Source: Escherichia coli
GTDB lineage: Bacteria > Pseudomonadota > Gammaproteobacteria > Enterobacterales > Enterobacteriaceae
Length of the DNA stretch: 64,000 nucleotides
Reading direction: 5' to 3' (one strand)
NCBI RefSeq assembly: GCF_009931435.1
Contig: NZ_CP043414.1
Below are positions 16,868 to 22,265 of this stretch, piece by piece. Position numbers and translations under genes: made by a program. How positions within the stretch are numbered: the stretch's first letter is position 1; the number at the start of each line of letters is the position of its first letter. Below the pieces are notes generated by a model. It did not search any database. It was given only the letters and a program-made list of their open reading frames with translations, and was not told the DNA's origin.

Positions 16868-17836
16868 ATGACGATGCCAACCAATCAATGCCCGTGGCGG
16901 ATGCAGGTTCATCACATTACGCAAGAAACGCCGGATGTGTGGACGATTTCCCTGATTTGCCACGATTACTACCCGTATCGCGCCGGGCAATATGCGCTGG
17001 TCAGCGTGCGTAACTCAGCGGAAACGCTGCGTGCTTACACCATTTCCTCCACACCAGGCGTGAGTGATTACATCACTCTGACCGTGCGGCGGATTGATGA
17101 CGGTGTCGGTTCCCAGTGGCTGACCCGCGATGTAAAACGCGGTGACTACCTCTGGCTTTCGGACGCGATGGGGGAATTTACCTGCGACGATAAAGCAGAA
17201 GATAAATTCCTGTTGCTGGCGGCCGGCTGCGGCGTCACGCCGATTATGTCGATGCGTCGCTGGCTGGCGAAAAACCGTCCGCAGGCTGATGTGCAGGTGA
17301 TCTACAACGTGCGTACGCCGCAGGATGTCATTTTCGCGGATGAGTGGCGTAATTACCCGGTGACACTGGTGGCGGAAAATAATGTTACCGAGGGATTCGT
17401 TGCCGGACGCCTGACTCGCGAACTGCTGGCCCGCGTTCCTGATTTAGCCTCGCGTACTGTAATGACCTGTGGCCCGGCTCCGTATATGGATTGGGTAGAA
17501 CAGGAAGTGAAAGCGCTCGGCGTGACGCGTTTCTTTAAAGAGAAGTTCTTTACGCCAGTGGCGGAAGCAGCAACCAGCGGTCTGAAATTCACCAAACTGC
17601 AACCGGCGCAAGAATTTTACGCACCTGTTGGCACCACACTGCTGGAGGCTTTGGAAAGCAACAAAGTTCCGGTTGTCGCCGCCTGCCGTGCAGGTGTTTG
17701 CGGCTGCTGTAAGACGAAAGTGGTTTCCGGTGAATATACGGTGAGTAGCACAATGACGCTGACCGACGCCGAAATCGCAGAAGGTTATGTACTGGCCTGC
17801 TCCTGCCATCCGCAGGGGGATTTGGTTCTCGCATAA
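16868..17836 (+). CDS. hcr: NADH oxidoreductase for Hcp
   Basis: 322-aa product from ATG 16868 preceded by AAGGAG; C-terminal 2Fe-2S Cys cluster CRAGVCGCCKTKV. Confidence 0.9.
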   Translation: MTMPTNQCPWRMQVHHITQETPDVWTISLICHDYYPYRAGQYALVSVRNSAETLRAYTISSTPGVSDYITLTVRRIDDGVGSQWLTRDVKRGDYLWLSDAMGEFTCDDKAEDKFLLLAAGCGVTPIMSMRRWLAKNRPQADVQVIYNVRTPQDVIFADEWRNYPVTLVAENNVTEGFVAGRLTRELLARVPDLASRTVMTCGPAPYMDWVEQEVKALGVTRFFKEKFFTPVAEAATSGLKFTKLQPAQEFYAPVGTTLLEALESNKVPVVAACRAGVCGCCKTKVVSGEYTVSSTMTLTDAEIAEGYVLACSCHPQGDLVLA

Positions 17837-17968
17837 TCGTATTATGCCCGATGATATACCTGTCATCGGGCAGTTTAACCGTTAGTGCCTCATTTTTCTC
17901 CCACCCCATCCCCCTCCGTCAGATGAACTAAACTTGTTACCGTTATCACATTCAGGAGATGGAGAACC

Positions 17969-19687
17969 ATGAAACAAACGGTTGCAGCTTATATCGCCAA
18001 AACACTCGAATCAGCAGGGGTAAAACGCATTTGGGGAGTCACGGGCGACTCTCTGAACGGTCTTAGCGACAGTCTTAATCGCATGGGCACCATAGAGTGG
18101 ATGTCCACCCGTCATGAAGAAGTGGCGGCCTTTGCCGCTGGCGCTGAAGCCCAACTTAGCGGGGAACTGGCGGTCTGCGCCGGATCATGCGGACCTGGCA
18201 ACCTGCACTTAATCAACGGTTTGTTCGATTGTCACCGTAATCACGTTCCGGTACTGGCAATTGCCGCTCATATCCCTTCCAGCGAAATTGGCAGCGGCTA
18301 TTTCCAGGAAACCCACCCGCAAGAGTTATTCCGCGAATGTAGCCATTATTGCGAGCTGGTTTCCAGCCCGGAGCAGATCCCACAAGTGCTGGCGATTGCT
18401 ATGCGTAAAGCGGTGCTAAACCGTGGCGTTTCCGTTGTCGTGTTACCGGGCGACGTGGCGTTAAAACCGGCACCGGAAGGGGCAACCACGCACTGGTATC
18501 ATGCGCCACAACCAGTCGTCACCCCAGAAGAGGAAGAGTTACGCAAACTGGCGCAACTGCTGCGTTACTCAAGCAATATCGCCCTGATGTGCGGTAGCGG
18601 CTGCGCGGGGGCGCATAAAGAGCTCGTCGAGTTTGCCGGAAAAATTAAAGCGCCTATTGTTCATGCCCTGCGCGGTAAAGAACATGTCGAATACGATAAT
18701 CCGTATGATGTCGGAATGACGGGATTAATCGGCTTCTCGTCAGGTTTTCATACCATGATGAACGCCGACACGTTAGTGCTGCTCGGCACCCAATTCCCCT
18801 ACCGTGCGTTCTACCCGACCGATGCCAAAATTATTCAGATTGATATCAACCCGGCCAGCATCGGCGCGCACAGTAAGGTGGATATGGCACTGGTCGGTGA
18901 TATCAAATCGACTCTGCGTGCATTGCTGCCTTTAGTGGAAGAAAAAACCGATCGAAAATTTCTGGATAAAGCGCTGGAAGATTACCGCGATGCCCGCAAA
19001 GGGCTGGACGATTTAGCTAAACCGAGTGAGAAAGCCATTCACCCGCAATATCTGGCGCAGCAAATTAGCCATTTTGCTGCCGATGACGCCATTTTCACTT
19101 GTGATGTCGGCACACCAACGGTATGGGCGGCGCGTTATCTGAAAATGAACGGCAAGCGCCGCCTGTTAGGTTCGTTTAACCACGGTTCAATGGCCAACGC
19201 CATGCCGCAGGCGCTGGGTGCTCAGGCGACAGAGCCAGAACGTCAGGTGGTCGCCATGTGCGGTGATGGTGGTTTCAGTATGTTGATGGGCGATTTTCTC
19301 TCAGTGGTACAAATGAAGCTGCCAGTGAAAATTATCGTCTTTAACAACAGCGTGCTGGGCTTTGTAGCGATGGAGATGAAAGCCGGAGGCTACCTGACAG
19401 ACGGCACCGAACTGCACGACACCAACTTTGCCCGTATCGCTGAAGCGTGCGGTATTACGGGCATCCGCGTAGAAAAAGCCGCTGAAGTCGATGAAGCCTT
19501 GCAACGCGCCTTTTCCATCGACGGCCCGGTGCTGGTGGATGTGGTAGTCGCGAAAGAAGAGTTAGCCATTCCGCCGCAGATCAAACTCGAACAGGCCAAA
19601 GGATTTAGCCTGTATATGTTGCGCGCAATCATCAGCGGACGCGGTGACGAAGTGATCGAACTGGCGAAAACGAACTGGCTAAGGTAA
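17969..19687 (+). CDS. poxB: pyruvate oxidase (ubiquinone-dependent pyruvate dehydrogenase)
   Basis: 572 aa; TPP-binding motif [12 protein letters not shown]...NN. Confidence 0.95.
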
Positions 19688-19724
19688 AAAGGGTGGCATT
19701 TCCTGTCATAAATAAGGACATGCC

Positions 19725-20726
19725 ATGATTGATTTACGCAGTGATACCGTTACCCGACCGAGCCGCGCCATGCTCGAAGCAATGATGGCCGCCCCGGTTG
19801 GGGACGACGTTTACGGAGACGACCCTACCGTTAATGCTCTGCAGGACTATGCGGCAGAGCTTTCCGGGAAAGAAGCCGCCATTTTTCTGCCTACCGGCAC
19901 TCAGGCCAACCTGGTCGCTCTGCTCAGTCACTGCGAACGCGGCGAAGAGTATATTGTCGGTCAGGCCGCGCATAACTATCTGTTTGAAGCCGGTGGCGCA
20001 GCGGTGCTGGGCAGTATTCAGCCGCAACCCATCGATGCTGACGCCGACGGTACGCTACCGCTGGATAAAGTGGCGATGAAAATCAAACCCGACGATATCC
20101 ATTTCGCCCGCACCAAATTACTCAGTCTGGAAAACACCCACAATGGAAAAGTGCTGCCGCGGGAATACCTGAAAGAAGCATGGGAATTTACTCGCGAGCG
20201 CAATCTGGCACTGCATGTTGACGGTGCGCGCATCTTTAATGCCGTGGTGGCTTACGGCTGCGAACTGAAAGAGATCACGCAATATTGTGATTCGTTCACC
20301 ATTTGTCTGTCGAAAGGTCTTGGTACGCCAGTCGGTTCATTACTTGTCGGTAATCGTGATTACATTAAACGCGCCATCCGCTGGCGGAAAATGACTGGCG
20401 GCGGGATGCGCCAGTCCGGGATTCTGGCCGCCGCCGGAATGTATGCGCTGAAAAATAACGTTGCACGCTTGCAGGAAGACCACGATAACGCCGCCTGGAT
20501 GGCGGAGCAACTGCGTGAAGCAGGCGCGGATGTCATGCGCCAGGACACCAATATGCTGTTTGTCCGCGTCGGACAAGAAAATGCTGCCGCATTAGGCGAA
20601 TACATGAAAGCGAGAAACATACTGATTAACGCCTCGCCGATTGTCCGCCTGGTAACCCATCTCGATGTCTCGCGTGAACAACTGGCAGAAGTCGCAGCCC
20701 ACTGGCGCGCTTTCCTGGCGCGTTAA
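19725..20726 (+). CDS. ltaE: low-specificity L-threonine aldolase
   Basis: 333-aa PLP-dependent aldolase-like ORF immediately after poxB. Confidence 0.9.
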
Positions 20727-20736
20727 GGAGAGAGAC

Positions 20737-22167
20737 GTGCCGCAACGCATTTTAGTTCTCGGTGCCAGTGGCTACATTGGTCAGCATCTGGTGCACGCGC
20801 TTAGCCAACAAGGGCATCAGATCCTGGCGGCGGCACGTCACGTCGACAGGCTTGAAAAGCTGCAACTGGCAAACGTCAGTTGCCATAAAGTCGATCTCAG
20901 CTGGCCGGATAACCTTCCGGCCCTGTTGCAGAATATCGATACCGTCTATTTTCTGGTGCACAGCATGGGCGAAGGCGGCGATTTTATCGCTCAGGAGCGC
21001 CAGGTGGCTCTTAACGTCCGCGATGCGCTGCGCGAAGCACCGGTTAAACAATTAATCTTTCTCAGTTCATTGCAGGCCCCGCCTCACGAGCAGTCGGACC
21101 ATCTGCGCGCCCGTCAGGCTACGGCGGATATTCTTCGTGAAGCGGGTGTTCCGGTGACCGAATTGCGTGCCGGAATTATCGTTGGCGCAGGTTCAGCGGC
21201 GTTCGAAGTCATGCGCGATATGGTGTACAACCTGCCAGTGTTAACGCCGCCACGCTGGGTTCGTTCACGCACCACGCCCATCGCGCTGGAAAACTTGCTG
21301 CACTATCTGGTGGCGCTGTTAGATCATCCGGCCAGCGAACACCGCATCTTCGAAGCCGCCGGACCAGAGGTGCTCAGTTATCAGCAACAGTTTGAACATT
21401 TTATGGCGGTGAGCGGTAAGCGCCGCTGGTTAATCCCCATCCCCTTTCCCACCCGCTGGATTTCGGTGTGGTTTCTCAATGTGATTACTTCCGTACCGTC
21501 AACCACCGCCAAAGCGTTGATTCAGGGGCTGAAACATGATCTGCTGGCGGATGACACCGCGCTACGTGCACTCATCCCACAACGGCTGATCGCTTTCGAT
21601 GACGCGGTACGTCGCACCCTGAAAGAAGAAGAAAAGCTGGTCAACTCCAGCGACTGGGGATACGACGCTCAGGCCTTTGCCCGCTGGCGACCGGAGTACG
21701 GTTATTTCGCCAAACAGGCGGGGTTTACCGTTAAAACGTCCGCCAGCCTTGCGGCTTTATGGCAGGTGGTGAATCAAATCGGCGGTCAAGAGCGTTATTT
21801 CTTTGGCAATATTTTGTGGCAAACCCGGGCGTTGATGGACCGCGCGATCGGTCATAAGCTGGCGAAAGGCCGCCCGGAGCGTGAATATTTGCAGACCGGA
21901 GATGCGGTGGATAGCTGGAAAGTGATTGTCGTTGAACCGGAAAAACAACTTACGCTGTTATTTGGCATGAAAGCGCCGGGGCTGGGACGACTGTGTTTTA
22001 CCCTGGAAGATAAAGGTGACTATCGTACTATCGATGTTCGCGCATTCTGGCATCCGCACGGTATGCCGGGGCTGTTTTACTGGTTACTGATGATCCCCGC
22101 GCATCTGTTTATTTTTCGCGGAATGGCAAAACGAATCGCCAGACTGGCAGAACAAAGCACAGATTAA
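20737..22167 (+). CDS. ybjT: NAD(P)-binding Rossmann-fold protein YbjT
   Basis: 476-aa product from GTG at 20737 preceded by AAGGAG (6-nt spacer); N-terminal [12 protein letters not shown]; ORF-track start 20665 overlaps ltaE and is rejected. Confidence 0.8.
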
Positions 22168-22265
22168 TCGACAAAACCTGCGTTATTCTTTCATGTTTCC
22201 CATTGCATCAAGGGGGAAATCACGGAAGAATGCGCACGTCATTTTCTCAACAACAGTGGATTGAT

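Follow-up and report, generated by a model that had tools for sequence, protein, structure and literature searches.

Within the window, a 64,000-nucleotide stretch of the Escherichia coli chromosome reaching from cydC to beyond dacC (contig NZ_CP043414.1), ybjT is very likely (probability about 0.95) translated from the GTG codon following the ltaE gene by means of a Shine–Dalgarno sequence placed on the ltaE stop codon, is co-transcribed with ltaE, and makes no use of the in-frame ATG at position 20665. This GTG had already been proposed by the sequence-only reading, and the current annotation, the comparison with 80 further loci, the substitution pattern, the in-frame stops upstream, the origin of the rare ATG, and the profiles of the SDR family all agree on it. 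The conclusion as such is not new, because this start is already known as the current public annotation. The existing 476-aa model of YbjT is hence confirmed, and the relevance of the result lies mainly in annotation quality. The features discussed below are listed in Table 1.

Table 1. Features at the ltaE–ybjT junction, with positions counted from the first nucleotide of the window
Feature	Position	Strand	Basis
ltaE, low-specificity L-threonine aldolase, 333 aa	19725..20726	+	Open reading frame list; N96 annotation with the same coordinates
Spurious 24-codon extension of the longest open reading frame, inside ltaE in another frame	20665..20736	+	Not coding in the ybjT frame, judged by its substitutions
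Predicted local RNA hairpin, UGGCGCGUU / GACGUGCCG	20716..20742	+	Minimum-energy fold
Shine–Dalgarno sequence AAGGAG of ybjT	20725..20730	+	Pairing with the 16S 3′ end, −9.2 kcal/mol
Start codon GTG of ybjT	20737..20739	+	RefSeq annotation; conserved position; switch of the codon-position pattern
ybjT, 476 aa, N-terminal NAD(P)-binding Rossmann/SDR and C-terminal DUF2867 domains	20737..22167	+	Pfam; identity to K-12

Read directly, the junction is GCG CGT TAA GGAGAGAGAC GTG CCG CAA CGC ATT TTA GTT CTC GGT GCC AGT GGC TAC ATT GGT, that is, ltaE ends in CGT and the stop codon TAA at 20724–20726, GGAGAGAGAC comes next, and the GTG follows. The tight junction described by the sequence-only reading is thus present, with a gap of 10 nt between stop and start. 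Its further statement, that AAGGAG and a GTG come after the ltaE stop, holds for the presence of both elements and fails in its strict wording, as the first two bases of AAGGAG are the last two of the stop codon (TAAGGAG); AAGGAG and the GTG are separated by 6 nt. Shine–Dalgarno strength was scored by pairing the 3′ end of 16S rRNA with the 18 nt that precede a candidate start, and equals −9.2 kcal/mol for the GTG at 20737, −2.8 kcal/mol for the ATG at 20665, and 0.0 kcal/mol for a GTG at 20674. Among all 6,045 ATG, GTG, and TTG triplets on both strands of the whole window, pairing as strong as −9.2 kcal/mol is seen for 0.93%, and AGGAG at a spacing of 4–9 nt for 0.3%. The ybjT GTG, with its AAGGAG, 6-nt spacer, and strong pairing, is a canonical Shine–Dalgarno-led start, and ltaE–ybjT is a standard operon junction with a stop-overlapping Shine–Dalgarno sequence and a distance of +10 nt. 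The only repeat at the junction is an 8-nt direct repeat, CTGGCGCG, with two copies in the 3′ end of ltaE and no evident role; an Rfam scan of positions 17500–23500 yielded no credible RNA family, the single match (E = 0.71) being located elsewhere.

The RefSeq start of K-12 MG1655 ybjT (b0869, NP_415390.4) is a GTG 10 nt past the ltaE stop, giving 476 aa, and the same start and length are annotated in N96, R32_14_1F, Z0117EC0005, and 2013C-4282, the close relatives whose annotation was compared. The K-12 junction has the stop-to-start sequence of the window (TAAGGAGAGAGACGTG), the same gap, and a product of the same length; but an Asp codon of ltaE that reads GAT in the window is GAC in K-12, which hence lacks the upstream ATG. 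At a junction of the K-12 type (E. coli locus L019), the longest open reading frame would begin at a TTG. As for experimental mapping of initiation sites or protein N-termini, no entry for ybjT (b0869, P75822) is present in the supplements of TRAINSPOTTER (PMC13245402), TetRP (PMC4909307), or the Salmonella riboproteogenomics study (PMC11005335). The gene order poxB–ltaE–ybjT–ybjS is conserved between the window and K-12. Strain N96 is collinear to the base with the window for these four genes and 97% identical to it over the 4.4-kb locus; in the 1 kb around the junction, identity to the window is 99% for N96 and about 94% for the majority of E. coli genomes.

A scan with one genome per species yielded 80 enterobacterial loci (Escherichia, Citrobacter, Enterobacter, Klebsiella, Kluyvera, Kosakonia, Leclercia, Lelliottia, Raoultella, Buttiauxella, and other genera), or 81 junctions with the window included. 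A GTG is found exactly 24 nt before the GASGYIG motif in 76 of the 80 loci, and in 74 of these 76 the Shine–Dalgarno pairing ranges from −8.3 to −12.8 kcal/mol, the exceptions being L043 (−5.3) and L053 (−6.0). The remaining four loci, from Atlantibacter (L075), a genome labelled Citrobacter freundii (L078), Buttiauxella (L080), and Dryocola (L082), instead begin two codons earlier, at an ATG 30 nt before the motif, each with a Shine–Dalgarno sequence of its own. At 58 of the 81 junctions, the arrangement of TAA, 10 nt, and GTG is retained exactly; the distance from the end of GGAG to the start is 6 nt at 62 junctions and 5 nt at 11.

Neither TAA nor GTG varies across the 58 loci of identical spacing, and the entropy of GGAG is 0–0.13 bits; in the spacer, five of the six positions are variable (1.1–2.0 bits) and position −1 less so (0.53 bits). 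A conserved Shine–Dalgarno sequence and GTG separated by a variable spacer form the pattern expected of a functional ribosome-binding site. Starting at the GTG, the three codon positions of the ybjT frame have entropies of 0.45/0.31/1.10 bits, and residues 1–18 of YbjT show conservation of the coding type. None of the 77 junctions with this N-terminus has lost the GTG; at comparable four-fold degenerate G sites, G is seen in 68% of loci and A in 8%. Such retention weakly suggests that the start codon, or coupled and low expression of YbjT relative to LtaE, is under selection; weakly, because the sequences are phylogenetically related and not independent.

LtaE matches the NCBIfam equivalog NF007825 over its full length (711 bits, 1–333 of 333). 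YbjT is an orthologue of K-12 YbjT, with 463 of 476 residues identical (97.3%) and both proteins 476 aa long, and has Pfam matches above the cut-offs to NAD_binding_10 (61.6 bits), Epimerase (58.1), NmrA (48.7), and DUF2867 (55.8). All NCBIfam matches for YbjT are far below their cut-offs, hence only the generic label “SDR family oxidoreductase” is justified; YbjT is a predicted NAD(P)-binding protein of the SDR fold with a C-terminal DUF2867 domain. The expectation of a Rossmann motif near the N-terminus of the GTG-started protein is borne out, GxxGxxG (GASGYIG) occupying residues 9–15. Position 1 of the Pfam models Epimerase, 3Beta_HSD, Sacchrp_dh_NADP, and GDP_Man_Dehyd falls on residues 29–30 of the 500-aa open reading frame, that is, on residues 5–6 of the GTG-started protein; similarly, positions 1–2 of the NCBIfam models GalE, yfcH, HpnA, OleD, and ThyD align to YbjT residues 4–5, and residue 2 of 3dqp_A and residue 4 of 5f5l_A, two solved relatives, align to YbjT residue 4. 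Judged by these alignments, members of the family normally start a few residues ahead of the first beta-strand and the glycine motif, and a 24-residue leader would depart from this norm. Methionine aminopeptidase generally removes the initiator Met before Pro. Since Pro follows it in YbjT, the initiator Met is probably removed, giving a mature N-terminus PQRILV….

If the longest open reading frame were the gene, ybjT would start at the ATG at 20665 and encode 500 aa, with 24 additional residues inside the 3′ end of ltaE. In favor of this reading, ATG is preferred as a start codon, and no stop interrupts the frame between 20665 and 20737 in the window. The earlier description of this frame, as overlapping ltaE by about 60 nt and having no ribosome-binding site, proves accurate, with 62 nt of overlap in the list of open reading frames and, for the ATG, pairing far weaker than that of the GTG. 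However, no ATG occurs at that position in K-12 or any of the 80 related loci: an uninterrupted ATG is specific to the rare E. coli allele of the window, and is seen in no other species. At 68 of the 81 junctions, the 24 codons before the start are interrupted by one or more in-frame stops. In the overlap (−72 to −14), the entropy by codon position in the ltaE frame is 0.42/0.39/1.28 bits, indistinguishable from that of upstream ltaE (0.39/0.30/1.19 bits); read in the ybjT frame, the same region would be most variable at codon position 2. The window differs from K-12 at six sites of the 72-nt extension; all six are third codon positions of ltaE, and the changes are synonymous there, non-synonymous in the extension, and leave the last 25 residues of LtaE identical; the hypothetical extension is 75% identical to K-12, vs. 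97.3% for YbjT itself. By this pattern of substitutions, with no constraint in the extension frame, the 24 codons ahead of the GTG are non-coding in the ybjT frame. The domain profiles begin after it, and PGAP does not call the ATG even where it is present, namely in N96 and three further strains carrying the allele of the window. The longer protein, then, appears effectively refuted by the comparison across genomes, and we consider it highly improbable.

Use of both starts in the rare ATG lineage, yielding a minor extended form of YbjT, is hardly more probable. The frame between the two codons is open in this lineage, and E. coli is known to use in-frame alternative starts, the subject of the Ribo-RET paper (10.1101/520783). 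But the upstream ATG, besides its missing ribosome-binding site, lies inside the actively translated ltaE, with ribosomes passing in another frame, and nothing indicates selection for an allele that is recent, rare, and due to a change synonymous in ltaE. A start further downstream, e.g., at the GTG at 20791, would make the GTG at 20737 only apparent, and in-frame GTG, CTG, and ATT triplets do exist there; their pairing, however, is weak (−2.2 to −4.2 kcal/mol), and such a start would delete GxxGxxG, matched by Pfam and NCBIfam from profile position 1, and disregard the coding-type conservation of the first 18 residues, so that its probability is negligible. Initiation at the GTG at 20737 remains the preferred reading.

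As for transcription, an operon of poxB, ltaE, and ybjT is conserved in enterobacteria (PMC2759082), and the transcription start assigned to “ybjT” by Reg-Seq was experimentally determined at K-12 position 909320 (PMC7567609, supplement). By the K-12 gene coordinates, this position falls in the poxB–ltaE spacer, at a distance of 26 nt from the ltaE ATG. Given the operon and a “ybjT” transcription start upstream of ltaE, ybjT is always co-transcribed with ltaE: the two are the distal genes of the poxB–ltaE–ybjT operon, with a second transcription start just upstream of ltaE. An internal ybjT promoter was considered and rejected, as the Reg-Seq “ybjT” promoter turned out to be the one upstream of ltaE. 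A consensus scan of the plus strand between ltaE and ybjT gave no promoter-like site, and terminator-like matches between the two genes were not convincingly above the shuffled background. The poxB operon depends on RpoS and is expressed in stationary phase.

In the proposed mechanism, the strong Shine–Dalgarno sequence overlapping the ltaE stop would direct initiation at the ybjT GTG, and a ribosome terminating at the ltaE TAA would cover both elements; by clearing local structure or by re-initiating, it may couple ybjT to ltaE to some extent. Some translational coupling, suggested by the 10-nt gap and the Shine–Dalgarno sequence on the stop codon, is plausible because the terminating ribosome would cover this Shine–Dalgarno sequence and the GTG. 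The pair has two features expected of coupled pairs, co-transcription (the reported operon) and a very short stop-to-start distance (10 nt). Unfolding and re-initiation, the two models of coupling, have been reviewed (PMC12548453). The abstract of Huber et al. (2023, PMC10666635) describes a class of E. coli gene pairs with intergenic distances around +10 nt, which ltaE–ybjT resembles in being co-transcribed, on the same strand, and +10 nt apart from stop to start; the link between this distance class and a Shine–Dalgarno sequence on the upstream stop codon is our own reading and goes beyond that abstract. According to the same abstract, reinitiation becomes far less efficient as the distance grows, with almost none left at about 20 nt, and therefore a gap of 10 nt may give only partial coupling. 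Pairs whose coupling has been demonstrated by experiment mostly overlap by 4 or 1 nt; ltaE–ybjT, at +10 nt, is a putatively coupled pair.

The predicted hairpin at the junction has 9 bp; its loop holds the Shine–Dalgarno sequence and its stem includes the GTG, and the 91-nt region has a z-score of −0.95. All nine pairs can form in 3 of the 58 loci with the same spacing, the consensus fold omits the hairpin, and it is confined to Escherichia, without covariation support. It was accordingly rejected as a conserved coupling element on the grounds of its distribution, z-score, and absence from the consensus fold, and is probably a weak, lineage-specific structure.

The conserved junction provides a small lead, in that LtaE and YbjT may be co-expressed and possibly functionally linked. 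One might go further and take TAAGGAG-N6-GTG as a trace of selection for coupled and low translation of YbjT relative to LtaE, and hence of a functional partnership of the two proteins; we regard this as unlikely. If it held, the partnership might consist, e.g., in the handling of an aldehyde or beta-hydroxy-amino-acid product by the threonine aldolase and the SDR/DUF2867 protein, which is reportedly membrane-tethered.

Over-extension of starts to the longest open reading frame is a common artefact of gene calling, and the ATG at 20665 resembles it in preceding the true start in frame, having no ribosome-binding site, and overlapping the preceding gene; it differs in being confined to a rare allele. 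The ATG arises from the synonymous change of GAC to GAT in the Asp codon of ltaE, as compared with K-12. Of 5,425 matching records, 18 reach 95% identity or more to the window across the 95-nt junction, 3 of them at ≥99% and 15 at 95–99%, and the allele is carried by at most about 18 of 5,424 complete E. coli genomes; the ATG is present in the three of these 18 whose sequence was examined (L084–L086), and the junction of N96 is identical to that of the window, ATG included. In this rare lineage, the longest-frame rule would mis-call the start of ybjT and add 24 false residues overlapping ltaE; more generally, a gene can acquire a misleading upstream ATG through a synonymous substitution in the gene before it. 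As predicted from the sequence, the peptide VNNWQK would be readily detectable if the extension were translated, and the tryptic N-terminal peptide of the GTG-started protein, (M)PQR, with 3–4 residues, is too short to detect. The same artefact is seen at the neighboring gene ybjS, where the longest open reading frame runs from a TTG at 22203 and the annotated start is the ATG at 22266.

The GTG start of ybjT is retained in all junctions with a shared N-terminus (77/77, among the window and the related enterobacterial loci L003–L082), and ATG is found at this position in none of them. For comparison, at G-majority four-fold degenerate sites within the first 100 codons, only 68% of loci carry G, and 8% carry A. 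This difference hints, weakly, at constraint on the non-ATG start of ybjT, the evidence being weak since the compared sequences are phylogenetically related and not independent.

One genome shows a divergent junction, L055, with approximately 125 nt between ltaE and ybjT. Here, the C-terminus of LtaE deviates (...HWKSFLSST); the genome is labeled Chryseobacterium sp. 18061, while its sequence is clearly enterobacterial. The proximal TTAAGGAGAACAACGTG is still present despite the gap, hence, the ybjT ribosome-binding site persists in this locus without the overlying ltaE stop. In the window, the last ltaE codons contain two copies of an 8-nt direct repeat, CTGGCGCG, 13 nt apart; the second copy provides the 5′ side of the hairpin, specific to this lineage, that surrounds the Shine–Dalgarno sequence, and no function for the repeat is evident.

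The Reg-Seq "ybjT" promoter (K-12 transcription start 909320) does not lie in front of ybjT itself but 26 nt ahead of the ltaE ATG; its -10 and -35 elements fall within the poxB 3′ end, and it is effectively an ltaE–ybjT promoter.

Coordinates of the features (window positions, except for L055)
Feature	Position	Strand	Start	Length	Location
Reg-Seq "ybjT" promoter region	~19688–19724				poxB–ltaE spacer
CTGGCGCG repeat, two copies	20702–20722			8 nt each	ltaE 3′ end
ybjT start	20737		GTG		
ybjS, mechanical ORF	22203–23279		TTG 22203	358 aa	
ybjS, annotated start (N96)			ATG 22266	337 aa	
AT-rich island	24500–27000				between ybjQ and ybjP
Intact ORF	24636–26477	minus		613 aa	inside AT-rich island
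L055 divergent junction	1375–1501 (L055)			~125 nt	between ltaE and ybjT

Across RefSeq genomes, two names are in use for the 476-aa ybjT product, "DUF2867 domain-containing protein" and "SDR family oxidoreductase", as noted for the hits in E. coli R32_14_1F (H26) and RMDEC465 (H29). The coordinates relative to ltaE are identical in H26, the one genome compared. This is a naming inconsistency and not a distinct gene model. A longest-ORF artefact, as in ybjT, is also seen in ybjS, whose start annotated in the close relative N96 sits immediately ahead of the Rossmann motif.

The island between ybjQ and ybjP has a GC content of 31–34%, compared to ~53% in the flanks, and looks horizontally acquired. 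Among 5,426 complete E. coli genomes, only 543 carry its ORF region, 18 of them at an identity of at least 95% and 525 at 80–90%. The ORF is intact in the window, whereas its counterpart in N96, the closest genome, is annotated as frameshifted. Pentapeptide-repeat matches in this ORF are weak; the ORF may be related to pentapeptide effectors of the EspX or PipB type.
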